DNA of 64,000 nt from Candidatus Oxydemutator sp. (lineage in GTDB: Bacteria > Pseudomonadota > Gammaproteobacteria > Poriferisulfidales > Oxydemutatoraceae), in assembly GCA_965203445.1 (NCBI GenBank), contig OZ241883.1, positions 576,001 through 640,000 on the forward strand. The letters run 5' to 3'. Position 1 is the stretch's first letter. Every line of letters starts with the position of its first letter. The position numbers and the translations under genes are program-made. Under the pieces are notes generated by a model, which saw only the letters and a list, made by a program, of their open reading frames with translations, had not been told where the DNA came from and searched no databases. Shown one piece after another: positions 1 to 64,000 of this stretch.

Positions 1-3000
1 CGTCGCTCGCCTCGATGATGGTCCTGACGGAAACCGGCATGCCCAGATCCACGCCGCGCGCGGGCGCCCCCGTGAGCCTCGCGCCCGTCAACGTCACCAC
101 CAGCACCTCGGAAAACTCGGGCGCGTCGTCGTCGCGCACCCCCACCGAAAACGACGCGCTGACGGCGCCCGATTCGATGGCCACGCTGCTCGCGGTCACG
201 CCGACAAAGTCGGCGGCGTCGACTTCGCCGCCGCCCACCGACCAATCCCAACGCGCACGCACCCCCGGCGGCAAGGCCTGCGGCAAGCGCACCACGTAAC
301 TCGCGGTGCCGCCTTCCGACACCGTCTCGCTGCCGGCGAGCGTCGGGGCAAGACTCACCGCCGGCTGCGCCTCCCGCTGCAACGTGCGACGCGCCACCTC
401 CGTGTCGGTAGCGCCGCCGAACACCAGCACCGGGTAATCGAACACGCTGCCGAAGTCCCACGGCGCGTCGTCGTTCAAGTCGCCGTCGCGTCCCCGATCC
501 ACGCCGTCCACGTCCAACTGGTCCCAACCGGCGTAGATCGTGCCCGCGGTCGTCGTCGGGACGCGCAACTCGCTCGACGTCTTCGAGGTGTCGTCCGGAC
601 TCGGCGCATTCGTTCCGCAGCAACGGCTCAGACCGCTGCGCTCGGCGTCAAAATAACTCGACTCGACCACGGCGCCGACTACCCGGTTGCCTATCAGACC
701 GCCGGCCGTGGCCGTCCCCGTCGTTACCCCGACCGAGTAGCTGGCGCTGACCACCGACGCGCCACCGGCTTCGCCCACCAGACCGCCCGCGTTGCTTCCC
801 TCCGCATGCACCTCCACGTCGGCGTAACTCGCCACCAGCCTGCCGTAATGACCCCCTATCAAACCGCCCACTCTCGAGGCGCCGGATACGCGACCGCCAC
901 TCACGTAACTCGCCGCCACCTTGCCCTCGTTGCGGCCCACCAGCGCACCGGTATAGGTGCTGCTGCGGCCCAAGTTCATCCGCGCGTTGCGCAAGCCCAC
1001 GTTGCGGATCACGCCGGCGGCGCCGACGGCGCCGAACAAACCCACGTGATACCACGACCCGCTCCTGGTCACCCGCAAATTGCTGATGACGTGGCCGTTG
1101 CCTTCAAAAATGGCGCTGTACGCATCCCCCGGAAGGTCTTGAAGCCCGACCCCCCCGCCTAACGGCGTCCAGTCCGGGATGCCGGACAAGTCCAGATCGT
1201 TGGACAACTCGTAGCCGGTGCACGTGCTCGGACAGGTCCGTTTCTCGTCGAAAAAGGGAAACGCCGCATAATAAGCGGATTTGTTAGTCTTGCTCACGCC
1301 CGCCGGCCCGACACCGCCCAGGTCGTAGCGTATCGCCGCCAACTGCGACGTCGTCTCCACGTCTATCAAGGTGTCGCCGTCGCCGTTGTAGATTGTTTCG
1401 TCGCTCGCCTCGATGATGGTCCTGACGGAAACCGGCATGCCCAGATCCACGCCACGCGCGGGCGCCCCCGTGAGCCTCGCGCCCGTCAACGTCACCACCA
1501 GCACCTCGGAAAACTCGGGCGCGTCGTCATCAAACACCCCCACCGAAAACGACGCGCTGACGGCGCCCGATTCGATGACCACGCTGCTCGCAGTCACGCC
1601 GACAAAGTCGGCGGCGTCGGCTTCGCCGCCGCCCACCGACCAATCCCAGCTCGCACGCACCCCCGGCGGCAAGGCCTGCGGCAAGCGCACCACGTAACTC
1701 GCGGTGCCGCCTTCCGACACCGTCTCGCTGCCGGCGAGCGTCGGGGCAAGACTCACCGCCGGCTGCGCCTCCCGCTGCGACGTGCGACGCGCCTGCACCG
1801 TTTCGGTGGAGCCGCCGAACACCAGCACCGGGTAATCGAACACGCTGCCGAAGTCCCACGGACTGTCGTCGTTCAAGTCCCCGTTGTCACCCTGATCCAA
1901 GCCGTCCACGTTCAACTGATCCCAACCCGCATAGATCGTGCCCGCGGTCGTCGTCGGGACGCGCAATTCGCTCGACGTCTTCGAGGTGTCGTCCGGACTC
2001 GGCGCATTCGTTCCGCAGCAACGGCTCAAGCCGCTGCGCTCGGCGTCAAAATAACTCGACTCGACCACGGCGCCGGCAACCCGGTTGCCTATCAGACCGC
2101 CGGCCGTGGCCGTCCCCGTCGTTACCCCGACCGAGTAGCTGGCGCTGACCACCGACGCGCCACCGGCTTCGCCCACCAGACCGCCCGCGTTGCTTTCCTC
2201 CGCATGCACCTCCACGTCGGCGTAACTCGCCACCAGCCTGCCGTAATGACCCCCTATCAAACCGCCCACCCCCGAGGCGCCGGATATGCGACCGCCACTC
2301 ACGTAACTCGCCGCCACCTTGCCCTCGTTGCGGCCCACCAGCGCACCGGTATAGGTGCTGCTGCGACCCAAGACCACCCGCGCGTTGCGCAAGCCCACGT
2401 TGCGGATCACGCCGGCGGCGCCGACGGCGCCGAACAAACCCACGTGATACCACGACCCGCTCCTGGTCACCCGCAAATTGCTGATGACGTGGCCGTTGCC
2501 TTCAAAAATGGCGCTGTACGCATCCCCCGGAAGGTCTTGAAGCCCGACCCCCCCGCCTAACGGCGTCCAGTCCGGGATGCCGGACAAGTCCAGATCGTTG
2601 GACAACTCGTAGCCGGTGCACGTGCTCGGACAGGTCCGTTTCTCGTCGAAAAAGGGAAACGCCGCATAATAAGCGGATTTGTTAGTCTTGCTCACGCCCG
2701 CCGGCCCGACACCGCCCAGGTCGTAGCGGATCGCCGCCAACTGCGACGTCGTCTCCACGTCTATCAAGGTATCGCCGTCGCCGTTGTAGATTGTTTCGTC
2801 GCTCGCCTCGATGATGGTCCTGACGGAAAGCGGCACGCCTAAACTCACGTGCGCGGGCGCCCCCGTGAGCCTCGCGCCCGTCAACGTCACCACCAACACC
2901 TCGGACAACTCGGGCATGCCGTCGTCGCGCACCCTCAACGAAAACGACGCGCTGACGGCGCCCGAGACGATGACCACGTTGCCTGCGGTCGTGCCGACAA

Positions 3001-41621: not shown

Positions 41622-41627
41622 ACCGCC
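41622..41627 (-). promoter_or_regulatory. Shine-Dalgarno-like GGCGGT 6 nt upstream of ATG 41615
   Basis: One mismatch to GGAGGT at typical spacing. Such matches are common in GC-rich DNA. Confidence 0.35.
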
Positions 41628-41765
41628 GAGCGTTCACGCTTTCGCGCACTTTCCCGTGACCGGCGGCAACGCGTTGGGAGCAGTCGCTTGCGACAAGATG
41701 GATGCAGGTGCGCCCGATACGGACGGCACGTGCCTAAGGCCAGGGAAATGAGATACCATGCTAAT

Positions 41766-41789
41766 AGGGAACTATAGGCTATATGCCCT
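41766..41789. promoter_or_regulatory. Imperfect dyad AGGG-CA-TATAG-C-CTATA-GTT-CCCT (possible operator or leader hairpin)
   Basis: Seen on the minus strand about 27-50 nt downstream of the extended -10 box. Confidence 0.3.
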
Positions 41790-41815
41790 GATCCATGAAA
41801 ATGGGCGATTGGGGA

Positions 41816-41824
41816 ATTATATCA
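41816..41824 (-). promoter_or_regulatory. Extended -10 sigma70-type promoter element TGnTATAAT for gene B
   Basis: The minus strand reads TG-A-TATAAT, a perfect extended -10 consensus, inside the only AT-rich stretch of the window and oriented toward gene B. No good -35 at 17-bp spacing. Confidence 0.55.
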
Positions 41825-41927
41825 AGCAGTTAGATCAATTCCATTCCGACTCCTGACAAATAAATACAAGTTATTGTTCCCCCTTGCTTTTATAATCATT
41901 CCGGGAAATGACCAAGCCGGCCATTGC

Positions 41928-42713
41928 CTAATGCACCGAAAACGTCCTGCGCCGACCCTTGTTCTCTATCACGAAATACCGATCGGCGGACAACACCTCG
42001 CCGTCAAAGTCCACGTCCGCGTCCACCGCGTAATGGCCGGCCGCGGCCGCGGCGCGGTAGTCGGCCACGCCCAGCGACGTCAGGTTGTACACGCGTATCA
42101 ATACCTCGTCTCGCTCATCAATCACGCCGTTTCGATCCACGTCGCCCGCGACCATCGCATACCTGCCTGCCCCCACTGCGATCTGCCCGTCCCCGTGCGA
42201 CTGCCCGACGCGAAAGTCCACGCAGTAGTCCGCCTCGCAATCGGCGCCCGTGGTCGCGGCCGCCGGCACCGCCGACATCACCGGCAGATGGTTGCGGTGG
42301 TGGATCAGCACGTACAGGTGCTCGCCTTCGGGCGGCTTCAGCTCAAAGCGCACGCCGTCCAATGACAGCGCGTCCGCCACCGACGACGCCGCCTCGTTTA
42401 TCCCGGCGATGCGACCGTCGCTCAACAGCAGACCCGCGGCGCGACCGCCCGTCGACGGCCGCGACGACGCGGCCGCGGTCGTGCTCTGGCCGGTGCGCAA
42501 CTCCACCAGCACCCAGTCCACTATCGTCGAGGTTACCCCGGCCAGGCCAACCGCCGCGCCCGCGTGCGGCACCGTCGTCGTCACCGGGTGCCCCCACGGC
42601 AACGCGCCGTACGGCTGGCGCCTCGGCAACAAGTTTGCCAAGTCGCTCCTCATGCGGCGGGTTTCGGCAAGCAACGCCCCCTGCAAAACCACTCGCGCGT
42701 CCACCACTACGAC
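41928..42713 (-). other. Non-repetitive C-terminal domain (~260 aa) with a terminal dockerin-like duplicated Ca-binding loop
   Basis: RVVLQG...LPRRQPY...IVDWVLVELR...GLLLSDG...YVLIHHRNHLPVMS...VDF..., then GDVDRNGVIDERD (42146-42108) and ADVDFDGEVLSAD (42020-41982), matching the DxDxxGxxxxxD dockerin/EF-hand loop pattern twice. Confidence 0.65.
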
Positions 42714-51700: not shown

Positions 51701-54700
51701 CGGTAATGACGTCATCGCGCACCCTCACCGAAAACGACGCGCTGCTCGCGCCGGATGCGATGACCACGCTGCCGCTGGTCCTGCCGTCAAAGTCGTCGGC
51801 GTTGACCTGGTTGCCGCCCACCGCCCAATTCCAACTCGCAGTCACCCCCGCCGGCAAGGCCCCCGGAAAGCGCACCACGTAACTCGCGGTGCCACCTTCC
51901 GACACCGTCTCGCTGCCGGCGAACGTCGGCGTAAGACTTATCTCCCGCTGCGTCTCCCGCTGCGACGTGCGACGCGCCACCTCCGTGTCGGTAGCACCGC
52001 CGAACACCAGCACCGGGTAATCAAACTTGGTGCCGAAATCCCACGGAGCGTCGTCGTTCAAATCGCCGTCGCTGCCCTGATCCACGTCGTCCACGTTCAA
52101 CTTGTCCCAACCGGCGTAGATGGTGCCCGTCGCCGTGAGCGGGAACAACAAGTCGCTCGACGTCTTCGCAACAACGTCGTCCAGACCATGCGCGTTCGTT
52201 CCGCAGCAACTGCTCCGGAGGCTGCGCTCTTTGTCAAAATAACTCGACTCCACCGCGGCGCCGGCAACCCTGTTCCCTATCAAACCGCCGACCAGCCCTC
52301 CCCCCGTCGGTATCCCGACGGAGTAGCTGGCGCTGACCACCGACGCGGCGCCGGCTTCGCCCACCAGACCGCCCGCGTTGCTTGCCTCTGCATGCACCTC
52401 CACGTCGGCGTAACTCGCCACCAAACTGCCGTAATGACCCCCTATCAAACCGCCCACCCCGGATGCGCCGGATATGCGACCGCCACTCACGTAACTCGCC
52501 GCCACTTTGCCCTCGTTGCGGCCCACCAGCGCACCGGTATAGGTGCTGCTGCGACCCAAATCCACCTGCGCGTTGCGCAAGCCCACGTTGCGGATTCTGC
52601 CGTCGGCGCCGACGATGCCGAACAAACCCGTGCCATACACCCCGCCGCCGCTCATCCGCAGGTTGCTGATGACGTGGCCGTTGCCTTCGAAAACAGCGGT
52701 GTAAGCATCCGGCGTACCGCCCCCGCCTAGCGGCGTCCAGTCCGCTACGTCGGACAGATCCAGGTCGGCCGATAACTCGTAGCCGGTGCACGCACCCGGA
52801 CAGCTCGCCTCGTCGAAAAAGGGAAACGCCCGCCGATAAGCGACGTTGTTCGCGTCGCCCACGCCCGTCACCCCGACACCGCCCAGGTCGTGGCGGATCG
52901 CCGCCAACTGCGACGTCGTCGCCACCTCTATCAAGGTGTCGCCGTCGACGTCGTAGTCCTTTTCGACTCCGTCGCTGGGATCGATCACGGTCCTCACCGG
53001 AGCGGGCACGCCTAAGCGCACGCCACGCGCGGGCACCCCCGCGCCCGTGAGCCTTGCATTGCTCAACGCAACCACCATGGTCTCGAACGACTCGGTATCG
53101 GCGTCGTCGCGCACTACCACCGAAAACGACGCGCTGACGGCGCCAGACCTGATGACCACGGTGCCGGTCGTGTTGACAAAGTCGGCGGCGTCGGCTTCGC
53201 CGCCGCCCACGGCCCAATCCCAAGTCGCGCGCACCCCCGCCGGCAAGACCATCGGCAAGCGCACCACGTAACTCGCGGTGCCGCCTTCCGACACGGTCTC
53301 GCTTCCGATGAGCGTCGGTGCAAGACTTACCTGCGGCTGCGCCTCCTGCTGCGACCTGCTACGCGCCTGCCTCGTCTCGGTAGCACCGCCGAACACCAGC
53401 ACCGGGTAATCAAACGCGCTGCCGAAATCCCACGGACTGTCGTCGTTGTAGTCGACGTCGCCCCCCTGATCCACGTCGTCCACGTTCAACTTGTCCCAAC
53501 CCTCGTAGATGGTGCCCGCGGCCGTGGTCGGTGTGCGCAACTGGTACGACGTCCTCGGAGCGACGTTGTTCAGATCACCCGGGTTCCTTCCGCAGCAACT
53601 GGCCCGAAGGCTGCGCTGCACGTCAAAATAACTCGACTCCACCACGGAACCGGCAACCCGGTTCCCTATCAAACCGCCGACGAAGGCAGTCCCCGACTCC
53701 GCTTCCACCAACCCGACGGAGTAGCTGGCGCTCACCACCGACGCGCCATCGGCGTCGCCCGTCAAACCGCCCACGCCGCTCTCTATTCCATGCACCCTCA
53801 CGGCCGCGTAACTCGCCACCAACCGCCCGCCGTAATGACTCCCTACCAAACCGCCCACCGAAGCCACGCCGGATACGCTACCGCCAATGACGTAGCTCGC
53901 CACCACTTCGCCCCGGTCCCCGTTGTCTCCTACCAGCGCGCCTACAAAATAGCCACCGTGCACCTGAACGTTACGCAAGCCCACGTTGCGGATCACGCCA
54001 CTGCCGTTCACGGCCCCGAACAAACCTATCTGAGTCGGAACGGCAGCAGGATTACCAGGCGGAACGTCATGATACATCGTCAAGTTTTTGATGACGTGGC
54101 CGTTGCCTTCAAAAACAGCGGTGTAAGCATCCCCCGGAAAGTCGCGCAGCGGGACGTTCCCGCCTATAGGCTCCCAGTTCGGTATGTCGGACAGATCCAG
54201 GTCGGCCGACAACTCGTAGCCAATGCACGTGCCCGGACAAGTCTCCATCTCGTCGTACAGGGGAAACGCCGCCCGATAAGCCCGATAAGCTGCCTCATTC
54301 GCACTGCTCACGCCCGCCAGCCCGGCGCCGCCCAGGTCGTGGCCGATCGCCGCCAACTGCGACGTCGTCGCCACCTCTATCAAGTTGTCGTCGTCAAAGT
54401 CGTAGTCCACGCGATCACGCACCTTGACCGTCACCGTGTCCACGCCCGTCGCGCCGCGCGCGTCCGCAACCGTCAACTCGAACACCAGCGTCTCCGCCAC
54501 CGCCGCCCGCGGCACCGCGAACGTCGCCGTCTCCGACGTGGCGCCCGTCACCTCGACGACCGTGCCGCTGAGCTGACGCCACCGATACGTCAACTCCTCG
54601 CCTTCCGGATCATCCGCGACGCCGCGCAGCGCAACCACGTCGCCTTCGCGCACGATCACGTCGGAACCCGCGTCCACCATCGGCGCGTCGTTCGCGCCCG

Positions 54701-57700
54701 CGCGCACCGTGATCACCACCGTGTTCGTTGTCTGACCACTCAACTGCCGTTCCACGGGCGACGACAAACCCCGCGTGTCCGTCGCCACCAGCACGAACGT
54801 CAGGGTCTCGCTGCTCACCAACTGCTCCGGCGCCACAAACGTCGTGCTGCGCGCTGCGGCGTCGTGCAACGACACCTGACTGCCGCTGATCTGACGCCAG
54901 CCATACACCAGCATCTCGTTCTCCGGATCCCTGCCTACGCCGGCAAGCGTTACCACGTCGCCCTCGTCCACCATCTGGTCGGCGCCCGCGTCCGCTACCG
55001 GCGCGGCGTTCGCGCCCGCGCGCACCGTGATCACCACCGTGTTCGTCGTCTGACCGCTCAACTGCCGTTCTCTCGGCGACGACAGGCCGCGCGTGTCCGT
55101 CGCCACCAGCACGAACGTCAGGGTCTCGTCGCTCACCAACTGCTCCGGCGCCACAAACGTCGTGCTGCGCGCTGCGGCGTCGTGCAACGACACCTGACTG
55201 CCGCTGATCTGACGCCAGCCATACACCAGCATCTCGTTCTCCGGATCGCTACCGTCGCCGTCCAGCGTTACCATCTCGCCCTCGTACACCACCTGATCAT
55301 CGCCCGCGTCCGCCGTCGGCGCGTCGTTCGGCCCCGCTCGCACCGTGATCACCACCGTGTTCGTCGTCTGACCGCTCAACTGCCGTTCTCTCGGCGACGA
55401 CAAACCCCGCGTGTCCGTCGCCACCAGCACGAACGTCAGGGTCTCGTCGCTTACCAACTGCTCCGGCGCCACAAACGTCGTGCTGCGCGCTGCGGCGTCG
55501 CGCAACGACACCTGACTCCCGCTGATCTGACGCCAGCCATACTCCAGCACCTCCTCCTCCGGATCGCTGCCGGTGCCGGCCAGCGTTACCACCTCGCCCT
55601 CGTCCACCATCTGATCGGCGCCCGCGTCCGCCACCGGCGCGTCGTTCGCGCCCGGGCGCACCGTGATCACCACCGTGTTCGTCGTCTGACCGCTCAACTG
55701 CCGCTCTCTCGGCGACGACAAGCCGCGCGTGTCCGTCGCCACCAGCACGAACGTCAGGGTCTCGCTGCTCGCCAACTGCACCGGCGCCAGGAACGTCGTG
55801 CTGCGCGCTGCGGCGTCGTGCAACGACACCTGACTTCCGCTGATCTGACGCCAGCCATACACCAGCATCTCGTCCTCCGGATCGCTGCCTACGCCGGCCA
55901 GCGTTACCAACTGGCCCTCGTCCACCACCTGATCATCGCCCGCGTCCGCCGTCGGCGCGTCGTTCGGCCCCGGCAACACCTCGACCGACACCTCGGCAGA
56001 CGAACTCGCATCGCGCCTGTCCGTCACCGTCAGACGGAACACCAGCGTCGCCGTCTCCGCCAACTGCATCGGCGCCCTGAAACTCGCCCTATTCGTCGTC
56101 GGTTCGCCCAGCCCCACGTCAATACCGCCAATCTGTTCCCATCTATACGACAGACGGCCACCCTCGGTGTCCGTCGCACTGCCGCGCAACGTAACCTCGG
56201 CGCCTTCGCCTACCACTTGATCCGAACCGGCATCCACCACCGGCGGCGTGTTGACCCCCAGCTCCACATAGACCACCAAATCATCGGTCGTCGCGGCACC
56301 GCGCTCGTCCGTAACACGCAACGCAAACGCTATCTCCGTCGCCGAACTCAAACCCGTCGGTATCACAAAGCTCGTAATCCTCGACGACGCATCGCTCAAC
56401 GCAACTCCCAGCACCTCCGCACCGCTGGTCTGACTCCACCGATACCTCAACTCCTCGCTCTCAGGATCATAGGCGCTGCCGCGCAGCACCACCACGTCGC
56501 CCTCGCCCGCAAGCAGATTATCGCCCGCGTCCACCACCGGCGCGTCGTTCGCTCCCGCGCGCACTTCGACCACTACCGTGTCCGTGTCCGTCGCCCCGCG
56601 CGCGTCCGCCACCGTCAACTCGAACACCAGCGTCGCCGTCTCCACCAACTGCATCGGCGCCGTGAACGTCACGGTGGTCGTCGTGGTGGTCGTGGCGCCT
56701 ATCGTCGCTCCCGTCAACGTCACTCGACCGCCGCCGATCTGACGCCAGCCATACGTCAGATCCTCTCTCTCTGGATCACTGCTGCCATCGCCGTCCAGCG
56801 TTACCAGTCCGCCCTCGTCCACCACCTGATCATCACCCGCGTCCGCCACCGGCGCGTCGTTCGCGCCCGCGCGCACCGTCACCACCACCGTCGCCGTCGT
56901 CGAAACCGCACCACGCGTGTCCGTTACACGCAGCGCAAACTCCAACTCCTCATCCGACACCAACTGCATCGGCGCCGTGAAACTCGCGGTTACCGACATC
57001 GCGTTCGTCAGCGTAACGCGCACGCCCCGGGTCTGACTCCAGACATACACCAGCGCTTCTTTCTCCGGATCGTTACTGGCGTCGCCGTCCAGTATCACCA
57101 CCGCGCCCTCGGACACCACCTGGGCAAAACCGGCGTCCGCCGTCGGCGCGTCGTTCGCGCCCGGGCGCACCGTGATCACCACCGTGTTCGTCGTCTGATC
57201 GCTCAACTGCCGCTCCGCAGGCGACGACAGTCCGCGCGTGTCCGTCGCCACCAACACGAACGTCAGGGTCTCGCTGCTCACCAGCTGCACCGGCGCCACA
57301 AACGTCGTGCTGCGCGCCCCGGCGTCGTACAACGACACCTGACTGCCGCTGATCTGACGCCAGCCATACACCAACATCTCGTCCTCCGGATCGCTGCCCG
57401 CGCCGTCCAGCGTCACCACGTCGCCCTCGTCCACCACCTGATCATCGCCCGCGTCCGCCGTCGGTGCGTCGTTCTCGCCCGGAACCACCTCGACCACCAC
57501 CGTGGCCGTGCCCGTCGCGTCGCGCGCGTCCGTTACCGTCAACTCGAACACCAGCGTCGCCGTCTCCGCCAACTGCATCGGCGCCATGAACGTCGCGGTG
57601 GTCCTGGAACCTATCGTCGCTCCCGTCAGCGTCACTCGACCGCCGCCGATCTGACGCCAGCCATAGCTCAACTCCTCTCTCTCCGGATCCCTGCTACCGT

Positions 57701-60700
57701 CGCCGTCCAGCGTTACCATCTCGCCCTCGGACACCACCTGATCATCGCCCGCGTCCGCTATCGGCGCGTCGTTCTCGCCCGCACGCACCGTGATCACCAC
57801 CGTGTTCGTTGTCCGATCGCTCAACTGACGTTCCACGGGCGACGACAGACCCCGCGTGTCCGTCGCCACCAGCACGAACGTCAGGGTCTCGCTGCTCGCC
57901 AACTGCACCGGCGCCAGGAACGTCGTGCTGCGCGCTGCGGCGTCGTGCAACGACACCTGACTGCCGCTGATCTGACGCCAGCCATACACCAGCATCTCGT
58001 CCTCCGGATCGCTGCCATCGCCGGCCAGCGTCACCAACTGGCCCTCGTCCACCACCTGATCGGCGCCCGCATCCGCTACCGGCGCGTCGTTCGGCCCCGG
58101 CAACACCTCGACCGACACCTCGGCAGACGAACTCGCATCGCGCCCGTCCGTCACCGTCAGACGGAACACCAGCGTCGCCGTCTCCGCCAACTGCATCGGC
58201 GCCGTGAACGTCGCCACCGACGACGTCGGATTCCCCAAAACCACGTCGCCACCGCCGATCTGTTCCCACCTGTACGACAATACGCCGCCCTCGGTGTCCG
58301 TCGCACTGCCGCGCAGCGTGACCTCCGCCCCTTCATCCACCACTTGATCGGAACCGGCATCCACCATCGGCGGCGTGTTCGCTCCCAACTCCACCCTGAC
58401 CACCACTCGCGCGGTCGCCGCCAGACCGCGCTCGTCCGTCACCCTCAACGCAAATCCCAACACCACCGCATCCAACGGCGACGTGAACGTCGCCACCGAC
58501 GACGTCGCACCCGACAACATCACCGTCGGCTGACCGCTGGTCTGACTCCACTGATACCTCAACGTCTCGTTCTCCGGATCAAACGCCACCCCGCGCAGCG
58601 TAACCTCCTCACCCTCGCCCACCACCTGATCCTGCCCCGCGCTCACCACCGGCGCGTCGTTCGGCCCCGGCAACACCTCGACCGACACCTCGGCCGACGA
58701 ACTCGCATCGCGCCGATCCGTCACCGTCAGACGGAACACCAGCGTCGCCGTCTCCGCCAACTGCATCGGCGCCGTGAACGTCGCCACCGCCACCATCGGA
58801 TTCCCCAAAACCACGTCGCCACCGCCGATCTGTTCCCATCTGTACGACAATACGCCGCCCTCGTTGTCCGTCGCACTGCCGCGCAGCGTGACCTCCGCCC
58901 CTTCGCCGACCACTTGATCGGAACCGGCATCCACCACCGGCGGCGTGTTCGTCCCCAACTCCACCCGAACCACCACCAGCGCGGTCGTCGCCAGACCACG
59001 CTCGTCCGTCGCCCTCAACGCAAATATCAGCACCGCCGCCTCCGCCAGACCCGACGGCGACGTGAACGTCGCCACCGACGACGTCGCACCCGACAACACC
59101 ACCGTCGGCTGACCGCTGGTCTGGCTCCATTGATACCTCAACGTCTCGTTCTCCAGATCAAACGCCACCCCGCGCAGCACCACCGCCTCGCTCGAACCCA
59201 CTACCTGGTTCCGCCCCGCACTCACCACCGGCGCGTCGTTCGGCCCCGGCAACACCTCGACTGACACCTCGGCCGACGAACTCGCATTGCGCCCGTCCGT
59301 CACCGTCAGACGGAACACCAGCGTCGCCGTCTCCGCCAACTGCATCGGCGCCGTGAACGTCGCGGTTACCGACTGCGCGTTCGTCAGCGTGACTCCCCTG
59401 CCGCTGACCTGACGCCAGTCATACCTCAACTCCTCTCTCTCCAGATCGCTGCTGCCAGTGCCGTCCAGCGTTACCAACTCGCCCTCGTCCACCACCTGAT
59501 CGGCGCCCGCGTCCGCTACCGGCGCGTCGTTCTCGCCCGCGCGCACCGTGACCGACACCGTGTCCGTGCCCACCGCGTCGCGCGCGTCCGTTACCGTCAA
59601 CTCGAACACCAGCGTCGCCGTCTCCGCCAACTGCATCGGCGCCAGGAACGTCGCGGTGGTCCTGGAACCTATCATCGCTCCCGTCAGCGTCACTCGACCG
59701 CCGCCGATCTGACGCCAGCCATAGCTCAACTCCTCTCTCTCCGGATCCCTGCTACCGTCGCCGTCCAGCGTTACCATCTCGCCCTCGTACACCACCTGAT
59801 CATCGCCCGCGTCCGCCGTCGGCGCGTCGTTCTCGCCCGCGCGCACCGTGATCACCACCGTGTTCGTCGTCTGACCGCTCAACTGCCGTTCCACGGGCGA
59901 CGACAAACCCCGCGTGTCCGTCGCCACCAGCACGAACGTCAGGGTCTCGTCGCTCACCAACTGCTCCGGCGCCACAAACGTCGTGCTGCGCGCTGCGGCG
60001 TCGTGCAACGACACCTGACTCCCGCTGATCTGACGCCAGCCATACACCAGCATCTCGTCCTCCGGATCGCTGCCAACCCCGTCCAGCGTTACCACGTCGC
60101 CCTCGTCCACCATCCGGTCGGCGCCCGCGTCCGCGACCGGCGCGTCGTTCGCGCCCGGGCGCACCGTGATCACCACCGTGTTCGTCGTCTGACCGCTCAA
60201 CTGCCGCTCTCTCGGCGACGACAAGCCGCGCGTGTCCGTCGCCACCAGCACGAACGTCAGGGTCTCGCTGCTCGCCAACTGCACCGGCGCCAGGAACGTC
60301 GTGCTGCGCGCTGCGGCGTCGTGCAACGACACCTGACTGCCGCTGATCTGACGCCAGCCATACACCAGCATCTCGTCCTCCGGATCGCTGCCATCGCCGG
60401 CCAGCGTTACCAACTGGCCCTCGTCCACCACCTGATCGGCGCCCGCGTCCGCCGTCGGCGCGTCGTTCTCGCCCGGCAACACCTCGACCGACACCTCGGC
60501 AGACGAACTCGCATTGCGCCCGTCCGTCACCGTCAGACGGAACACCAGCGTCGCCGTCTCCGCCAACTGCATCGGCGCCGTGAACGTCGCCACCGACGAC
60601 GTCGGATTGCCCAAACCCACGTCGCCACCACCGATCTGTTCCCACCTGTACGACAATACGCCGCCCTCGGTGTCCGTCGCACTGCCGCGCAACGTGACCT

Positions 60701-63700
60701 CCGCCCCTTCGTCCACCACTTGATCGGAACCGGCATCCACCACCGGCGGCGTGTTCGTCTCCAACTCCACACGAACTGCCACCCGCGCGGTCGTCGCCAG
60801 ACCGCGCTCGTCCACAGCCCTCAATGCAAATCCCAGCACCGCCGCCTCCGCCAGACCCGACGGCGACGTGAACGTCGCCACCGACGACGTCGCACCCGAC
60901 AACACCACCGTCGGCTGACCGCTGGTCTGACTCCACTGATACCTCAACGTCTCGTTCTCCGGATCAAACGCCACCCCGCGCAGCGTAACCTCCTCGCCCT
61001 CGCCCACCACCTGATCCTGCCCCGCGCTCACCACCGGCGCGTCGTTCGGCCCCGGCAGCACCTCGACCGACACCTCGGCCGACGAACTCGCATTGCGCCC
61101 GTCCGTCACCGTCAACCGGAATACCAGCGTCGCCGTCTCCGCCAACTGCATCGGCGCCGTGAACGTCGCGGTTACCGACATCGCGTTCGTCAGCGTGACT
61201 CCCCTGCCGCTGACCTGACGCCAGTCATACCTCAACTCCTCTCTCTCCAGATCGCTGCTGCCAGTGCCGTCCAGCGTTACCAACTCGCCCTCGTCCACCA
61301 CCTGATCAAGTCCGGCGTCCGCCATCGGCACGTCGTTCTCGCCCGGCAACACCTCGACCGACACCTCGGCAGACGAACTCGCATTGCGCCCGTCCGTCAC
61401 CGTCAACCGGAACACCAGCGTCGCCGTCTCCGCCAACTGCATCGGCGCCGTGAACGTCGCCACCGACGACGTCGGATTGCCCAAAACCACGTCGCCACCG
61501 CTGATCTGTTCCCATCTGTACGACAATACGCCGCCCTCGTTATCCGTCGCACTGCCGCGCAACGTGACCTCCGCCCCTTCGTCCACCACTTGATCCGAAC
61601 CGGCATCCACCATCGGCGGCGTGTTCGTCCCCAACTCCACCCGAACCGCCACACGCGCGGTCGTCGCCAGACCGCGCTCGTCCGTCGCCCTCAACGCAAA
61701 TATCAGCACCGCCGCCTCCGCCAGACCCGACGGCGACGTGAACGTCGCCACCGACGACGTCGCACCCGACAACACCACCGTCGGCTGACCGCTGGTCTGA
61801 CTCCACTGATACCCCAACGTCTCGTTCTCCGGATCGAACGCCACGCCGCGCAGCACCACTTCCTCGCCCTCGCCCACTATCTGCTCCCGCCCCGCGCTCA
61901 CCACCGGCGCGTCGTTCGGCCCCGGCAACACCTCGACCGACACCTCGGCCGACGAACTCGCATTGCGCCCGTCCGTCACCGTCAGACGGAACACCAGCGT
62001 CGCCGTCTCCGCCAACTGCATCGGCGCCGTGAACGTCGCGGTTACCGACTGCGCGTTCGTCAGCGTGACCCCTCTGCCGCTGACCTGGCGCCAGTCATAC
62101 CTCAACTCTTCTCTCTCCAGATCGCTGCTGCCAGTGCCGTCCAGCGTTACCAACTCGCCCTCGTCCACCACCTGATCAAGTCCGGCGTCCGCCGTCGGCG
62201 CGTCGTTCTCGCCCGGCAACACCTCGACCGACACCTCGGCAGACGAACTCGCATCGCGCCCATCCGTCACCGTCAGACGGAACACCAGCGTCGCCGTCTC
62301 CGCCAACTGCTCCGGCGCCGTGAACGTCGCCACCGACGACGTCGGATTGCCCAAAACCACGTCGCCACCGCTGATCTGTTCCCATCTGTACGACAATACG
62401 CCGCCCTCGTTATCCGTCGCACTGCCGCGCAACGTGACCTCCGCCCCTTCGTCCACCACTTGATCCGAACCGGCATCCACCATCGGCGGCGTGTTCGTCC
62501 CCAACTCCACCCGAACCGCCACACGCGCGGTCGTCGCCAGACCGCGCTCGTCCGTCGCCCTCAACGCAAATATCAGCACCGCCGCCTCCGCCAGACCCGA
62601 CGGCGACGTGAACGTCGCCACCGACGACGTCGCACCCGACAACACCACCGTCGGCTGACCGCTGGTCTGACTCCACTGATACCCCAACGTCTCGTTCTCC
62701 GGATCGAACGCCACCCCGCGCAGCACCACTTCCTCGCCTTCGCCCACTATCTGGTTCCGCCCCGCGCTCACCACCGGCGCGTCGTTCGGCCCCGGCAACA
62801 CCTCGACCGACACCTCGGCCGACGAACTCGCATTGCGCCCGTCCGCCACCGTCAACCGGAACACCAGCGTCGCCGTCTCCGCCAACTGCTCCGGCGCCGT
62901 GAACGTCGCGGTTACCGACTGCGCGTTCGTCAGCGTGACTCCCCTGCCGCTGACCTGACGCCAGTCATATCCCAACTCCTCTCTCTCCAGATCGCTGCTG
63001 CCAGTGCCGTCCAGCGTTACCAACTCGCCCTCGTCCACCACCTGATCAAGTCCGGCGTCCGCCGTCGGCGCGTCGTTCTCGCCCGGCAACACCTCGACCG
63101 ACACCTCGGCCGACGAACTCGCATCGCGCCCATCCGTCACCGTCAGACGGAACACCAGCGTCGCCGTCTCCGCCAACTGCATCGGCGCCGTGAACGTCGC
63201 GGTTACCGACATCGCGTTCGTCAGCGTGACTCCCCTGCCGCTGACCTGACGCCAGTCATACCCCAACTCTTCTCTCTCCAGATCGCTGCTGCCGGTGCCG
63301 TCCAGCGTTACCATCTCGCCCTCGTCCACCACCTGATCAGCGCCCGCGTCCGCCGTCGGCGCGTCGTTCTCGCCCGGCAACACCTCGACCGACACCTCGG
63401 CAGACGAACTCGCATTGCGCCGGTCCGTCGCCGTCAGACGGAACACCAGCGTCGCCGTCTCCGCCAACTGCATCGGCGCCGTGAACGTCGCCACCGACGA
63501 CGTCGGATTACCCAAACCCACGTCAATACCGCCCGTTTGTTCCCACCTATACAACAGACGGCCGCCCTCGGTGTCCGTCGCACTGCCGCGCAACGTGACC
63601 TCGGCGCCTTCGTCCACCACTTGATCCGAACCGGCATCCACCATCGGCGGCGTGTTGACCCCCAACTCCACATAGACCACCAAATCATCGGTCGTCGCCG

Positions 63701-64000
63701 CATCGCGCTCGTCCGTAACACGCAACGCAAACGCTATCTCCGTCGCCGAACTCAAACCCGTCGGTATCACAAAGCTCGTAATCCTCGACGACGCATCGCT
63801 CAACGCAACTCCCAGCACCTCCGCACCGCTGGTCTGACTCCACCGATACCTCAACTCCTCGCCCTCAGGATCATAGGCGCTGCCGCGCAATACCACCACG
63901 TCGCCCTCACCCGCAAGCAGATCATCGCCCGCGTCCACCACCGGCGCGTCGTTCGTGCCCGCGCGCACCGTGACCACCACCGTGTTCGTCGTCTGACCAG
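41928..64000 (-). CDS. Giant repetitive adhesin-like surface protein (gene A): >=32 PKD-like domains, 8 GLUG-type beta-helix + Calx-beta modules, extra Calx-beta-like domain, dockerin-like C-terminal domain; 5' end outside the window
   Basis: 7,350-aa ORF in the track with stop TAG at 41930-41928. The frame stays open to the window edge (GQTTNTVVVTVRA at 63998 onward, mid-repeat), so the listed GTG start at 63980 is not the real start. Confidence 0.95.
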   Translation of the reverse strand, partial: GQTTNTVVVTVRAGTNDAPVVDAGDDLLAGEGDVVVLRGSAYDPEGEELRYRWSQTSGAEVLGVALSDASSRITSFVIPTGLSSATEIAFALRVTDERDAATTDDLVVYVELGVNTPPMVDAGSDQVVDEGAEVTLRGSATDTEGGRLLYRWEQTGGIDVGLGNPTSSVATFTAPMQLAETATLVFRLTATDRRNASSSAEVSVEVLPGENDAPTADAGADQVVDEGEMVTLDGTGSSDLEREELGYDWRQVSGRGVTLTNAMSVTATFTAPMQLAETATLVFRLTVTDGRDASSSAEVSVEVLPGENDAPTADAGLDQVVDEGELVTLDGTGSSDLEREELGYDWRQVSGRGVTLTNAQSVTATFTAPEQLAETATLVFRLTVADGRNASSSAEVSVEVLPGPNDAPVVSAGRNQIVGEGEEVVLRGVAFDPENETLGYQWSQTSGQPTVVLSGATSSVATFTSPSGLAEAAVLIFALRATDERGLATTARVAVRVELGTNTPPMVDAGSDQVVDEGAEVTLRGSATDNEGGVLSYRWEQISGGDVVLGNPTSSVATFTAPEQLAETATLVFRLTVTDGRDASSSAEVSVEVLPGENDAPTADAGLDQVVDEGELVTLDGTGSSDLEREELRYDWRQVSGRGVTLTNAQSVTATFTAPMQLAETATLVFRLTVTDGRNASSSAEVSVEVLPGPNDAPVVSAGREQIVGEGEEVVLRGVAFDPENETLGYQWSQTSGQPTVVLSGATSSVATFTSPSGLAEAAVLIFALRATDERGLATTARVAVRVELGTNTPPMVDAGSDQVVDEGAEVTLRGSATDNEGGVLSYRWEQISGGDVVLGNPTSSVATFTAPMQLAETATLVFRLTVTDGRNASSSAEVSVEVLPGENDVPMADAGLDQVVDEGELVTLDGTGSSDLEREELRYDWRQVSGRGVTLTNAMSVTATFTAPMQLAETATLVFRLTVTDGRNASSSAEVSVEVLPGPNDAPVVSAGQDQVVGEGEEVTLRGVAFDPENETLRYQWSQTSGQPTVVLSGATSSVATFTSPSGLAEAAVLGFALRAVDERGLATTARVAVRVELETNTPPVVDAGSDQVVDEGAEVTLRGSATDTEGGVLSYRWEQIGGGDVGLGNPTSSVATFTAPMQLAETATLVFRLTVTDGRNASSSAEVSVEVLPGENDAPTADAGADQVVDEGQLVTLAGDGSDPEDEMLVYGWRQISGSQVSLHDAAARSTTFLAPVQLASSETLTFVLVATDTRGLSSPRERQLSGQTTNTVVITVRPGANDAPVADAGADRMVDEGDVVTLDGVGSDPEDEMLVYGWRQISGSQVSLHDAAARSTTFVAPEQLVSDETLTFVLVATDTRGLSSPVERQLSGQTTNTVVITVRAGENDAPTADAGDDQVVYEGEMVTLDGDGSRDPEREELSYGWRQIGGGRVTLTGAMIGSRTTATFLAPMQLAETATLVFELTVTDARDAVGTDTVSVTVRAGENDAPVADAGADQVVDEGELVTLDGTGSSDLEREELRYDWRQVSGRGVTLTNAQSVTATFTAPMQLAETATLVFRLTVTDGRNASSSAEVSVEVLPGPNDAPVVSAGRNQVVGSSEAVVLRGVAFDLENETLRYQWSQTSGQPTVVLSGATSSVATFTSPSGLAEAAVLIFALRATDERGLATTALVVVRVELGTNTPPVVDAGSDQVVGEGAEVTLRGSATDNEGGVLSYRWEQIGGGDVVLGNPMVAVATFTAPMQLAETATLVFRLTVTDRRDASSSAEVSVEVLPGPNDAPVVSAGQDQVVGEGEEVTLRGVAFDPENETLRYQWSQTSGQPTVMLSGATSSVATFTSPLDAVVLGFALRVTDERGLAATARVVVRVELGANTPPMVDAGSDQVVDEGAEVTLRGSATDTEGGVLSYRWEQIGGGDVVLGNPTSSVATFTAPMQLAETATLVFRLTVTDGRDASSSAEVSVEVLPGPNDAPVADAGADQVVDEGQLVTLAGDGSDPEDEMLVYGWRQISGSQVSLHDAAARSTTFLAPVQLASSETLTFVLVATDTRGLSSPVERQLSDRTTNTVVITVRAGENDAPIADAGDDQVVSEGEMVTLDGDGSRDPEREELSYGWRQIGGGRVTLTGATIGSRTTATFMAPMQLAETATLVFELTVTDARDATGTATVVVEVVPGENDAPTADAGDDQVVDEGDVVTLDGAGSDPEDEMLVYGWRQISGSQVSLYDAGARSTTFVAPVQLVSSETLTFVLVATDTRGLSSPAERQLSDQTTNTVVITVRPGANDAPTADAGFAQVVSEGAVVILDGDASNDPEKEALVYVWSQTRGVRVTLTNAMSVTASFTAPMQLVSDEELEFALRVTDTRGAVSTTATVVVTVRAGANDAPVADAGDDQVVDEGGLVTLDGDGSSDPEREDLTYGWRQIGGGRVTLTGATIGATTTTTTTVTFTAPMQLVETATLVFELTVADARGATDTDTVVVEVRAGANDAPVVDAGDNLLAGEGDVVVLRGSAYDPESEELRYRWSQTSGAEVLGVALSDASSRITSFVIPTGLSSATEIAFALRVTDERGAATTDDLVVYVELGVNTPPVVDAGSDQVVGEGAEVTLRGSATDTEGGRLSYRWEQIGGIDVGLGEPTTNRASFRAPMQLAETATLVFRLTVTDRRDASSSAEVSVEVLPGPNDAPTADAGDDQVVDEGQLVTLAGVGSDPEDEMLVYGWRQISGSQVSLHDAAARSTTFLAPVQLASSETLTFVLVATDTRGLSSPRERQLSGQTTNTVVITVRPGANDAPVADAGADQMVDEGEVVTLAGTGSDPEEEVLEYGWRQISGSQVSLRDAAARSTTFVAPEQLVSDETLTFVLVATDTRGLSSPRERQLSGQTTNTVVITVRAGPNDAPTADAGDDQVVYEGEMVTLDGDGSDPENEMLVYGWRQISGSQVSLHDAAARSTTFVAPEQLVSDETLTFVLVATDTRGLSSPRERQLSGQTTNTVVITVRAGANAAPVADAGADQMVDEGDVVTLAGVGRDPENEMLVYGWRQISGSQVSLHDAAARSTTFVAPEQLVSSETLTFVLVATDTRGLSSPVERQLSGQTTNTVVITVRAGANDAPMVDAGSDVIVREGDVVALRGVADDPEGEELTYRWRQLSGTVVEVTGATSETATFAVPRAAVAETLVFELTVADARGATGVDTVTVKVRDRVDYDFDDDNLIEVATTSQLAAIGHDLGGAGLAGVSSANEAAYRAYRAAFPLYDEMETCPGTCIGYELSADLDLSDIPNWEPIGGNVPLRDFPGDAYTAVFEGNGHVIKNLTMYHDVPPGNPAAVPTQIGLFGAVNGSGVIRNVGLRNVQVHGGYFVGALVGDNGDRGEVVASYVIGGSVSGVASVGGLVGSHYGGRLVASYAAVRVHGIESGVGGLTGDADGASVVSASYSVGLVEAESGTAFVGGLIGNRVAGSVVESSYFDVQRSLRASCCGRNPGDLNNVAPRTSYQLRTPTTAAGTIYEGWDKLNVDDVDQGGDVDYNDDSPWDFGSAFDYPVLVFGGATETRQARSRSQQEAQPQVSLAPTLIGSETVSEGGTASYVVRLPMVLPAGVRATWDWAVGGGEADAADFVNTTGTVVIRSGAVSASFSVVVRDDADTESFETMVVALSNARLTGAGVPARGVRLGVPAPVRTVIDPSDGVEKDYDVDGDTLIEVATTSQLAAIRHDLGGVGVTGVGDANNVAYRRAFPFFDEASCPGACTGYELSADLDLSDVADWTPLGGGGTPDAYTAVFEGNGHVISNLRMSGGGVYGTGLFGIVGADGRIRNVGLRNAQVDLGRSSTYTGALVGRNEGKVAASYVSGGRISGASGVGGLIGGHYGSLVASYADVEVHAEASNAGGLVGEAGAASVVSASYSVGIPTGGGLVGGLIGNRVAGAAVESSYFDKERSLRSSCCGTNAHGLDDVVAKTSSDLLFPLTATGTIYAGWDKLNVDDVDQGSDGDLNDDAPWDFGTKFDYPVLVFGGATDTEVARRTSQRETQREISLTPTFAGSETVSEGGTASYVVRFPGALPAGVTASWNWAVGGNQVNADDFDGRTSGSVVIASGASSASFSVRVRDDVITELSEVMVVALSDAMLTGAPARVSLGVPVSVRTTIEARGEIDYDLDDDTLIEVATTSQLSAIRYDLGGAGLAGVSSANEAAYRAYLAAFPLYDEMETCPGTCTGYELSADLDLSSVNPAPGPGWTPLGGGVSSFGELLGGIYTAVFEGNGHVISNLRMVRDGHWFSMGLFGTVGRDGRIRNVGLRNAQVSLGSGGRFAGALVGINLGKVAASYVIGGRISGVFEVGGLIGGHFGSLVASYADVEVHTNASGAGGLIGEVGAASVVSASYSVGRLTGGTVGGLIGIAHRDVVVESSYFDGERSGLSRCCGVNPPSPDDTSKTSSQLRVPTTAAGTLYAGWDQLNVDDVARAGGGDLNDDAPWDFGTVFDYPVLVFGGATETRAMRRTSQQQAQPQVILAATLTGSVTVSEGEAASYVVSLPEVLPTGASVRWDWVVGGDEVSIADFVGTTGSVVIPSGAVSASFSVAVRADAVTELSEVMVVTLSSAMPTGAPARARLGVPVSVMTTIEASDQMDYDLDNDTLIEVATTSQLAAIRHDLGGDGLAGVSSANEAAYRAYRAAFPHYNEMETCPGTCTGYELSADLDLSGIPDWTPLGGGVRLEDLPGDVYTAVFEGNGHVISNLRVVRNVHERWFHVGLFGNVGLGGRIRNVGLRNARMSLGRDSEGAGALVGTNQGKVAASYVSGGRISGGISVGGLIGINGGEVVASYADVEVHAGGANAGGLVGSDHSEGAVTASYSIGRPTGASANGLIGSRVTGSVVESSYFDKERSGQSRCCGRNSPSPDNTSKTSTELLFPTTVTDTIYAGWDKLNVDDVDQGRDGDLNDDAPWDFGSVFDYPVLVFGGATETEAMRRTSQQQARPEVILTPTLAGSATGPEGGIASYVVRFPAALPAGASARWSWAVGGGEVDADDFVGTTVGSVVIAAGAASASFVLRVRADGEIEMPEVMVVALSNARLAGAPQGVGLGVPLPVSTTIEFSDGIDYDEDDDTLIEVATTSQLAAIRYDLGGAGIAGVSKTNKSAYFAAFPLFGAPQTCPSTCTGYELSADLDLSSVNPAPGPGWTPIGGEVSRIRDLLGQERYTAVFEGNGHVISNLRMVRDRQSLSMGLFGAVGADGRIRNVGLRNARVSLSNDGRGIGALVGFNLGEVAASYVIGGRIGGPSVDSVGGLIGDHRGGRLVASYAAVDVHADVDVGGLVGQAGYGSVTSASYFVGTLTGRNAVGGLTGSRHIRAVMESSYFDGQRSGLSRCCGLHPLSPDDTSRPSHQLHVPTTAAGTLYAGWDRLNVDGVARADDGDLNDDAPWDFGGVFDYPVLVFGGATETRAMRRTSQQEAQRVILTPVLTGSETTSEGGTASYVVRLPLVLPAGVRASWDWSVGGDVDADDFVGTTGNVAIASGAVSASFSVTVLDDDAPEPSEVLVISLAGARLTGVPARVSLGVPVPVMTAIEASDQIDYDADDDNLIEVATTSQLAAIRHDLGGAGLAGVSSANEAAYRAYLAAFPRYDETRTCPGTCAGYELSADLDLSSVNPAPGPGWTPLGGGVPRAVPGDAYTAVFEGNGHVIRNLRVARDGEWQIGLFGRVGAGGVIRNVGLHNARVEMGGDSLFIGALVGDNEGEVLASYVIGGRVSGNAGVGGLIGGHYAGRLVASYADVEVRADGANVGGLIGEAGGASVVSASYSVGRVTGIYPIGGLIGNRVAGAVVESSYFDRERSRQSGCCGSRASHQLRAPTTAVGTLYAGWDKLHVDDVDQGDDGDYNDDAPWDFGTVFDYPVLVFGGATETMAMRRTSQQQAQPQVILAATLTGSVTVSEGEAASYVVSLPEVLPAGATVSWDWVVGGDEVSIADFVGTTGVVVIGSGAVSASFSVEVFDDAIPEFSEVMVVTLSSAMPTGAPARARLGVPVSVMTIIEASDEVDYDLDNDTLIEVATTSQLAAIRHDLGGAGLTGVSGDANRDEYLDAFPVFGQLQTCPTTCTGYELSADLDLSSIPNWEPIGGGITQAPWNYVPPERRYQAVFEGNGHVISNVTIRSANNGAARFDSVGFFGAVGVTGRIRNVGLNNVHTDVPGGSIGAGALAGYNAGKVAACYVVGDVRQVHGGWALGGLVGKLDGGVVIASYTDVPVNQRSPGESVGGLIGGVSKGGIVSASYAVSRLTGDGGSPSGFPSGGLVGDHSSGTIQVSYFDEGRSGQSDCCGSHVPATDDAPRTSAQLRAPTAAAGTIYEGWDRLNVDGLDQGRDGDYNDDAPWDFGGAFDYPVLVFGGATETQAARRTSQQQAQPEVDFAPTLTGSTVVSEGGTASYVVRLPGALPAGARASWSWAVGGGEVDADDFVGTTAGSVVIEAGASSASFLLIVRADGEPELSEVLVVTLTDARLTGVPADVSIGGPVSIRTTIELSDGTDYDDDNDTLIDVATTSQLAAIRYDLGGAGIAGVVGKANRLAYFAAFPFFDAKQTCPSTCTGYELSADLDLSSVNPAPGAGWTPLGGGGDSLLDNYYTAVFEGNGHVISNLRVVRGGRLSHAGLFGAVGAVGTVRNVGLRDAWISLGDHSTYIGALVGRNEGKVVASYVSGGRISGVWAVGGLIGGNYGGLVASYAGVEVHAEGANAGGLVGEAGVASVVSASYSVGKPTGSGIVGGLIGNRMVGAVVESSYFDRERSVQSDCCGSNVLSPDNTSKTSNQLRVPTTAAGTIYEGWDKLNVDGLDQGRDGDYNDDAPWDFGGVFDYPVLVFGGATDTQAARRTSQQQTQPRVILAPTLAGSTVVVEGGTASYVVRLPEALPPGVSARWSWAVGGEVDADDFVGTTAGNVVIAAGAASASFVLRVRADGVIEPPEVLAVTLSSARLTGAPADVRLGVPSTVARTTIAVNDPITVAARSATVSENTTATFTITLRGGGDRAVVVEYEITAASGGLTHEDLASVTVTGRAADARSVGSLPFTGSVTLNETGTATIAVRVASDQLENEGRERFRLRLTGCPNCVTHVAELGTPSFADVGIFSERVVVVDARVVLQGALLAETRRMRSDLANLLPRRQPYGALPWGHPVTTTVPHAGAAVGLAGVTSTIVDWVLVELRTGQSTTAAASSRPSTGGRAAGLLLSDGRIAGINEAASSVADALSLDGVRFELKPPEGEHLYVLIHHRNHLPVMSAVPAAATTGADCEADYCVDFRVGQSHGDGQIAVGAGRYAMVAGDVDRNGVIDERDEVLIRVYNLTSLGVADYRAAAAAGHYAVDADVDFDGEVLSADRYFVIENKGRRRTFSVH
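42714..43109 (-). other. Divergent single Calx-beta-like domain of gene A
   Basis: ATVSENTTATFTITL...VEYEI...GSVTL...IAVRVASDQLENEGRERFRLRL, a typical Calx-beta pattern, followed by a CPNC pair. Confidence 0.6.
43110..54407 (-). repeat. Eight GLUG-type beta-helix + Calx-beta modules in gene A (~1.41 kb period)
   Basis: Eight DYDxDxDxLIxVATTSQL starts in the 7,350-aa translation (near 54407, 52960, 51585, 50165, 48760, 47345, 45960, 44505). Confidence 0.9.
54408..64000 (-). repeat. Array of 32 complete PKD-like (KIAA0319/K319L-type) Ig domains, ~97-105 aa each, continuing beyond the window
   Basis: 32 counted units beginning N[DT][AP]PxxxAGxDQxVxEGxxVTLxGxxxDxExxxLxYxWxQxxG...FxAP...FxLxVTD. 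Several subtypes; an 870-bp three-domain period is visible (marker ORFs 60533/61403/62273). Confidence 0.88.

Follow-up and report, generated by a model that had tools for sequence, protein, structure and literature searches.

Among the described systems closest to the locus reported here, Opa proteins of Neisseria and the BabA, BabB, and SabA proteins of Helicobacter form families of paralogous surface proteins, of which the variable loops are swapped by recombination and the genes carry simple repeats at the 5' end. Each gene provides one specificity, and the products are small barrels in the outer membrane. In LapA, SiiE, and the ice-binding RTX adhesins, which are giant surface proteins of repetitive build, the spacers are Ig-like or Calx-beta domains, and repeated binding heads are found in some multi-head trimeric autotransporters (BadA, Hsf). 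Here we describe a stretch of 64,000 nt (the window) at positions 576,001-640,000 of the closed genome of Candidatus Oxydemutator sp. (contig OZ241883.1), in which two giant genes, A and B, encode long chains of a repeated module consisting of a beta-helix and a Calx-beta domain. When Opa and Bab proteins are taken as the mechanistic model, the difference is that many variants stand inside one soluble chain. In contrast to LapA, SiiE, the RTX adhesins, and the autotransporters, the proteins of this locus have a Sec-type signal, zero or one RTX-like motif and no hydrophobic tail, and the helix itself is repeated.

The nearest published case found was the Giant cluster of Apilactobacillus kunkeei. 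As described in the accessible part of that report, Giant1-5 are extracellular proteins encoded by giant genes that follow one another in the small genome of a symbiont, and each protein carries an N-terminal beta-solenoid, a putative binding domain, on a long rod; they are diversified by recombination and take up 6% of the genome (PMC12863079). Compared with what is given there, the present system differs in having 6-33 helices per chain, exchange between paralogues, homopolymer runs, and giant genes that occupy 20.5% of the genome. Sponge aggregation factors are likewise encoded by clustered, similar, and polymorphic genes rich in Calx-beta and diversified by domain shuffling, according to the accessible part of PMC5400394; they are animal proteins with vWA and Wreath domains, and the likeness is an analogy only. 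No account of tandem GLUG/Calx-beta giants was found in the literature, of which the supplements may list such proteins, and the terms 'GLUG' and 'Calx' were absent from the main text of two surveys of giant proteins. The parts of the system (GLUG helix, Calx-beta, PKD, X-module-dockerin [XDoc], conversion, and homopolymer contingency loci) are all known, and what is unusual is the presence of many variants in one chain at such a scale.

We propose, at a probability of about one-half, that the array genes encode secreted multivalent adhesin-like fibres with a library of different beta-helix surfaces, which are reshuffled by cassette conversion and tuned by homopolymer contingency loci. The anatomy of the proteins, the register-bound variation, the block exchange of cores, and the long runs at several genes are directly supported. 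In the proposed mechanism, the chains would be exported by the signal peptide and a type II secretion system (T2SS), and, having no membrane tail, would be docked to a partner by the X-module/dockerin-like C-terminal domain. The calcium-type Calx-beta spacers would space the helices like beads, and the loop before each G-x-L-x-G strand together with the alternate positions after it would join into a single composite surface on each module. A given loop set would then represent a distinct and long-lived putative specificity for glycans or proteins of the host or of neighbours. Conversion of the RecA type through the conserved caps would copy whole cores among 92 slots, and therefore the genes would differ in the types carried and in their number. 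Slippage of the G runs would alter the output of A and B, by frameshift if translation starts at ATG or through ribosome binding if it starts at GTG.

The genome of 2,378,814 nt (63.6% GC) is rated 100% complete, and RpoB had its highest scores with gammaproteobacterial beta chains; genomes of relatives in the same family range from 1.4 to 3.0 Mb. Genes A and B are arranged head to tail on the minus strand as giant open reading frames (ORFs) of 16,130 and 9,081 codons, respectively, both counted from stop to stop (Table 1). Both start with a signal peptide and PKD domains, continue with modules, and end in a C-terminal domain that is 92% identical between the two, the layout being 2 PKD domains, 33 modules, and the tail in A, and about 48 PKD units, 8 modules, and the same tail in B. 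The claim of a first-pass annotation, made from the letters of the window, that these are two adjacent paralogous giant genes was thus borne out. So was its count of 37 copies of one module, which is exact because 29 of the 33 modules of A (A29 being cut by 5 nt) and all 8 of B start inside the window. Its estimate of a repertoire of at least 37 variable modules held for the copies but not for distinct types, which number only 17-31 depending on the cut: 19-31 by core distance and 17-29 by loops, with 22 at the 30% loop cut. Pairwise identity among the 37 modules was 58-96% (median 70%).

The array extends beyond the window to 6 paralogues with 92 modules over 158 kb, the further 4 genes upstream carrying 21, 6, 17, and 7 modules. 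Module E01, which is irregular in spacing, was excluded from all work on 91 modules, and E02, on a very long branch, also from the codon models. At the 30% loop cut, the 91 array copies make 36 loop types. The commonest of these, with 21 copies, fills 13 of the 17 slots at the end of A as well as the 8 final slots of C, and none before these in either gene; its positions are 1-16807 of the window and gene C, the N-terminal halves of A and C being without it. When 140 complete modules from 13 genes were compared, leaving out terminal modules, 70-114 core types were distinguished depending on the cut. Genome-wide, the module start motif was counted 194 times, distributed over 22 ORFs. The 22 giant genes, chosen by hand from the ORF list with antisense shadows excluded, total 487,050 nt or 20.5% of the genome. 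Were each loop type a separate binder, the use of one-fifth of a 2.4-Mb genome for giant genes would be explained.

The DNA is highly repetitive, and homopolymer lengths are in general error-prone, both of which would fit an array of repeats mis-joined or over-expanded in assembly. Such an artefact is nevertheless extremely improbable: only one repeat pair of at least 900 nt and at least 98% identity is listed in the array (5.7 kb, 98.07%), and only 1 of the 91 modules has an exact duplicate. The reading frames of the array genes are also open without interruption over 10-48 kb, the summed contig depth on the module framework is far above the intergenic depth, and arrays of like kind exist in other genera.

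A model of the module, built from 96 modules, gave a mean predicted local distance difference test score (pLDDT) of 87.6. Residues 1-343 matched 3n6z (Z 28.6, root-mean-square deviation [rmsd] 2.7 over 259 residues) and the helix of the N-terminal domain 2 (NTD2) of the metallo-IgA1 protease (7uvk and 7jgj; Z 21.8 and 18.5), and residues 349-465 matched Calx-beta of the CBD type of the Na/Ca exchanger (Z 12.6, rmsd 2.3 over 109 residues). As modelled, the module is a capped right-handed beta-helix of the GLUG/M26_N type, with repeated G-x-L-x-G rungs, followed by Calx-beta, in agreement with the earlier view of a beta-helix or solenoid with a spacer. The fold is the same as in 3n6z, 7uvk, and 7jgj including the caps, and the difference is that up to 33 helices stand in one chain, with a Calx-beta spacer and without the protease domain. 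Family models recognize the module poorly: PF07581 scored 13 and 9.6 bits in two of three modules scanned and gave none in the third, below the curated cut-off of 20.5; the Calx-beta score by itself was also under its cut-off, and no NCBIfam family matched the module or the tail. Atlas neighbours of the module carry the GLUG (PF07581) and Peptidase_M26_N (PF05342) families. Two Cys pairs are conserved in 87 and 90 of the 92 modules, and the invariant positions are mostly Gly and hydrophobic residues. In module A03 (36542-38086), a 40-residue loop carries an extra Cys pair, in common with C03, D03, F04, and protein P0004 of a relative.

Polysaccharide lyases and tailspikes have the same fold (Z 9-11), and the modules might accordingly be lyase- or depolymerase-like enzymes with varied substrates. 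This is very unlikely, as those Z values are far under those of the GLUG-type matches with an identity of about 10%, the invariant positions are of the kind just noted, and HExxH was found in none of the six array proteins. The middle and C-terminal catalytic domains of M26 are likewise absent, other domains accounting for all of A and B.

The helix domain is widespread. It was found in 20,242 clusters at E<=0.001, of which the top 150 consist mainly of long proteins matched several times over. Other genera repeat the helix with different spacers. For three genomes of the same genus, the 150 listed of 206 matches cover the Calx part only, and a gain or a loss of the helix array may therefore have occurred in this genus. 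Giants of that genus (G001, for example L116 and L136-L146) are Calx-beta proteins in which the helix is outside the listed matches.

Variation within the module follows the helix. Per-column entropy over the 91 array modules was below 0.3 bit in 153 of 466 columns and above 2 bits in 67, which agrees with the fixed framework and hypervariable loops noted earlier. The peaks are located at the loop preceding each G-x-L-x-G strand and at alternate positions following the strand. Rung register accounted for 69% of the entropy variance (p=5e-5, five rungs), and the variable positions are thus clustered at matching rung positions instead of scattered; as equal registers stack in a regular helix, the pattern would imply that the variable sites share one flank. 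An equivalent profile was observed in two other genera (23 modules of G004, rho 0.90; 12 modules of G012, rho 0.86). Trp and Tyr were found at 138 of 2104 residues of variable core sites (6.6%) versus 6 of 1366 at variable Calx sites (0.4%) and 0.4% of 1425 residues at variable PKD sites, in counts for which related copies are not independent.

Evidence for selection was mixed, with a subset of core sites showing an excess of amino-acid change. Model M2a was favoured over M1a, with twice the log-likelihood difference (2dL) of 435-533 and a non-synonymous to synonymous rate ratio (omega) of about 3 at 31-35 of 169 sites; in 4 neutral simulations with recombination, 2dL was 30-52. When synonymous rates were left free, 18 of the 169 core sites passed, compared with 0-3 in 6 recombination nulls. 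The 46 PKD repeats used as a control, on a tree half as long, gave an omega of 0.24, 2dL of 1.0, and 0 of 96 sites. Only L4 among 11 loops was clearly above 1 (omega 1.95, 2dL 12.4). On a segment tree, 2dL was 339 for the core, and the cap fits gave 130 for the N-cap and 64 for the C-cap, in a run of which the class omegas and p0 were stuck at their start values. The codon models were run with our own scripts after columns with >10% gaps and 2 of 48 PKD units had been dropped; loops with insertions align poorly.

Exchange between copies was evident in several ways. In a test of the PHI (pairwise homoplasy index) type, incompatibility increased with distance (p=0.001, 205 sites), and A11 and B06 share an identical tract of 598 nt, confirming the exchange of segments between copies and genes noticed earlier. 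The five core segments correlated with each other at 0.55-0.81 and with the caps and Calx at 0.15-0.43, adjacent ones included; the first and last core segments gave 0.80, the first core segment and its adjoining cap 0.28. Loop types present in at least two genes number 13 of 36, and one core is common to A05, A11, B06, C01, and F02 in different flanks. Of the ends of 49 long shared tracts, 19 lie within residues 250-279, where the core finishes. From the segment correlations, the shared cores, and the tract ends, we conclude that the core moves largely as a cassette, which may reflect co-adapted loops or simply the sites with long enough homology. Variable segments common to paralogues across conserved flanks are the arrangement expected of gene conversion. 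A mechanism through reverse transcriptase, as in diversity-generating retroelements, was rejected, because PF00078 was unmatched in the 100% complete genome.

G/C runs of at least 13 nt number 13 in the genome (range 13-28 nt), and runs of 11-12 nt are missing. Module genes carry five of the 13 at their 5' ends (p=3e-7 for a genome of about 1800 gene starts), and three more are at 5' ends of genes for GT4-like, 2OG-Fe(II) oxygenase, and HAD/GNAT-like proteins (the GT4 and HAD matches being under cut-off); of the rest, one splits a frame and four are unassigned. The poly-G tract noticed earlier at the start of the larger gene is a G27 run after the ATG of A; it and G25 of B correspond to the long simple repeats that contingency loci have at the 5' ends of surface genes. 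The ATG before G27 is out of frame and gives an 11-residue product, whereas the ATG is in frame in B (G25) and in C and D (G8). Directly after the run, A, B, C, and D each have a GTG in frame; it aligns with the ATG of gene F and leaves a full signal peptide. The G run pairs with the 16S tail at -10 kcal/mol, as against -6.2 for the ATG site. Judging from the sequence, an effect of tract length on the output of A and B is likely. The idea of switchable proteins was upheld as to a long G run at the 5' end, but it depends on a single tract length from the assembly and on a start codon that is uncertain; the length of G27, taken from assembled contigs, may be off by one base.

Loop sets were traced in relatives. 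The proteins P0004 and P0006 of a close relative showed a median tile identity of 85-88% to the genome and contained six scored modules. Five of the six had loop identities of 66-92% to a local type, with flanks at 64-88% and a median of 16-23% to all types; the sixth is of a different short type (27%). In 15 modules of six more distant proteins, loop identity was 17-54%, several having recognizable motifs. These loop identities are inflated, since the best of 146 was picked for each foreign module. On the sequences compared, the loop sets look old and retained, and therefore a standing library is favoured over fast antigenic turnover. The suggestion of antigenic variation lost ground accordingly: retention in diverged relatives fits fixed specificities better. 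An evasion or decoy coat, of which the whole exposed surface diversifies against phages, host pattern receptors, or grazers while G runs switch variants, is unlikely on the same ground. Such a coat would fit the excess change, which extends over loops, Calx-beta, and the C-cap and is not seen in PKD, as well as the other long runs at genes of likely surface-glycan chemistry. Apart from the persistence of the loop sets, however, all types of one chain would be displayed together, a poor fit to evasion, and a reverse transcriptase was not found in the genome.

As to export, none of the six array proteins has a hydrophobic C-terminal tail. RTX-like motifs number 0-1 per protein and the signal, judged by eye, is of the Sec type, features that do not match type I secretion of RTX proteins such as LapA. 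A T2SS-like operon with a secretin, beside which is a rhomboid-type gene, is located elsewhere in the genome. Three giants (G000:C1:1094169-1117187, 1186153-1194978, and 1679020-1712808) have a Gly-rich, hydrophobic, and basic tail which by eye resembles GlyGly-CTERM.

The last 262 residues, modelled at a pLDDT of 86.7, matched the X-module-dockerin of CipA (3kcp, 5g5d, 2b59; Z 9.9 and 9.5, the next match being 4.4) at 10-14% identity. All 25 complete copies of this domain in the genome, in 25 ORFs, are fused; of 78 named homologues that could be scored, 71 have the domain close to the C-terminus. The match to CipA XDoc covers the whole length of the domain; relatives differ in splitting its first strand, as a tail, from the rest. 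Of 26 long ORF ends in the relatives, 9 have the first strand as a tail, as identified by pattern, and another 6 have a variant of it, identified by eye. The remainder of the domain is on 15 small proteins with signal-like starts, two of which are encoded immediately behind a giant with a tail. The tail was found at the end of 15 of 150 helix relatives, and the fused domain in 10. Examples of the split form are L131:5406-6236 and 6267-16826, L147:9093-19998, and L145:7347-10331, to be compared with 41931-42716 of the window. If the C-terminus is the anchor, the varied types of A would be found at its tip, with the uniform block below them at the base.

A more elaborate form of the proposal, which we rate as less likely than not, takes the chains as a bacterial combinatorial receptor library with about 15 different beta-helix recognition surfaces per chain and 70-90 core types among the 140 modules, with cassette copying, a choice of chains by homopolymers, and an X-dockerin clip-on that relatives have split into tag and catcher. 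If this were true, a symbiont with a small genome could read many ligands of host and neighbours at once.

Several results weigh against a library of binding surfaces in either form. Loop classes gave an omega of 0.84-1.10 against 0.20 for the framework, so that the value for whole loops is not above 1. Recent loop changes within close clusters were neutral-like, 197 of 281 being non-synonymous (0.70 versus 0.71 expected), as were the recent pN/pS values of 1.08 and 0.77. Site signals were also obtained for Calx-beta (10 of 119 sites; M2a 2dL 160, without a recombination null for Calx) and the C-cap (9 of 93), and in subsamples of 46 modules the per-site rates were alike for the core (11-13 of 169) and Calx (7-9 of 119). 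One loop type makes up 9 of the 37 window copies and 21 of the 91 array copies. Clustering was assessed by rung register rather than by three-dimensional coordinates, and register-bound variation is equally expected from relaxed exposed loops without function. The block inheritance of cores could be mechanical, since divergent cores recombine poorly, and the in-frame GTG may, as the sequence stands, bypass a frameshift. No match to cohesin (PF00963) was obtained in the genome at E<=0.1, a divergent partner being possible, and with the C-terminus as anchor the PKD stalk of B would be at the tip, which the model leaves unexplained. The GLUG-type helix has no known ligand, the nearest characterised homologue being the NTD2 beta-helix in the matched range of 7uvk, which the accessible part of its report describes as a gate and scaffold (PMC9637739). 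In the accessible literature on GLUG domains a binding role was not found demonstrated; the motif is called one of unknown function in the part seen of PMC9723798, and the phrase 'GLUG motif' is rare, appearing in 2 of about 8.4 million searchable papers.

The proteins might form a structural fibre or capsule-like coat, in which the modules are stiff spacers, the loops drift freely, and tandem duplication and conversion leave a mosaic without repertoire function. A loop-class omega of about 1, the block of one type along the ends of A and C, and the abundance of the domain in long proteins are in line with such a coat. We regard it as rather unlikely, because the site signals exceed both the nulls and the PKD control, Trp and Tyr are enriched, long loops are retained in relatives to about the same degree as the flanks, and gene B already has a 48-unit PKD stalk. 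Taken together, the view that a putative binding domain was multiplied and diversified into a library gains from the beta-helix, the stacked variable sites, Trp/Tyr, the cores found across genes, and the excess at sites, and loses by the neutral-like loop class, the signal in Calx and C-cap, and the single type in 9 of 37 copies. Similarly, the proposed excess in site-wise dN/dS stands for a subset of sites above the recombination nulls and the PKD control, but not for the loops as a class, and it extends to Calx and the C-cap.

If the loop types are distinct binders, the locus would be a natural scaffold library and a first handle on the role of the GLUG beta-helix. If the modules bind nothing, the locus still illustrates on a large scale how modules are shuffled in giant surface proteins. 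Binding could be tested cheaply, as single helices of 345 residues give good models and the differences between them are confined to defined loops.

Table 1. Features of the window (positions in nt, counted from its first letter)
Feature	Position	Strand	Remarks
Gene A, giant secreted protein, ~16,120 aa	1..41615, extends 6.8 kb beyond left edge	-	Signal peptide, 2 PKD, 33 modules, extra Calx-like domain, XDoc-like end
G27 run (coding strand)	41587..41613	-	ATG 41615-41613 out of frame; in-frame GTG at 41587 uses last G
Sec-type signal peptide of A	41534..41587	-	By eye, no predictor; complete even from downstream GTG
Two PKD domains of A	40922..41533	-	PF22352, 2 stretches, E 2e-25
Modules A01-A29, 460-515 aa each	1..40921	-	Cys-stapled cap, GLUG-type beta-helix, C-cap, Calx-beta
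Module A04, used for model	35144..36541	-	Variable core residues 85-255; Calx-beta residues 347-466
Intergenic stretch before A	41616..41927	-	Paralogous to stretch before gene B
Gene B	41928..64000, start 5.2 kb past right edge	-	Own G25 run there, in frame
X-module/dockerin-like C-terminal domain of B	41931..42716	-	
Extra Calx-beta-like domain before C-terminal domain of B	42717..43109	-	By eye; Ig-type matches weak only
Modules B01-B08	43110..54407	-	All 8 modules of B
PKD repeat array of B	54408..64000	-	~48 units in whole gene, 6-18 types by cut; purifying selection; internal control

Other long runs were observed outside the module genes. A G20 run (G000:C1:359212-359231; L157:1260-2166) splits a gene that is out of frame as assembled. 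Its assignment as a response regulator was rejected on its motifs, and it had no Pfam hit; the motifs look like those of glycosyltransferase family 25. At G000:C1:1381142-1381235 (L161), two long runs on opposite strands and 42 nt apart are located at the 3' end of an AlbA_2/HATPase gene and could pair as a hairpin. A G18 run at G000:C1:1459668-1460893 (L162) lies upstream of regularly spaced short repeats, a candidate CRISPR array.

No conspecific DNA was present among the 77 metagenome loci compared (best 36% identity), and the 80 named genome loci are distant relatives in the C-terminal domain, mostly from Bacteroidota. A 221-nt piece with 1 difference was found in a contig set from a sponge metagenome, a weak hint of habitat. 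A gene for an AcrB-family transporter (L100:9884-13141) is located 75 nt downstream of A on the same strand.

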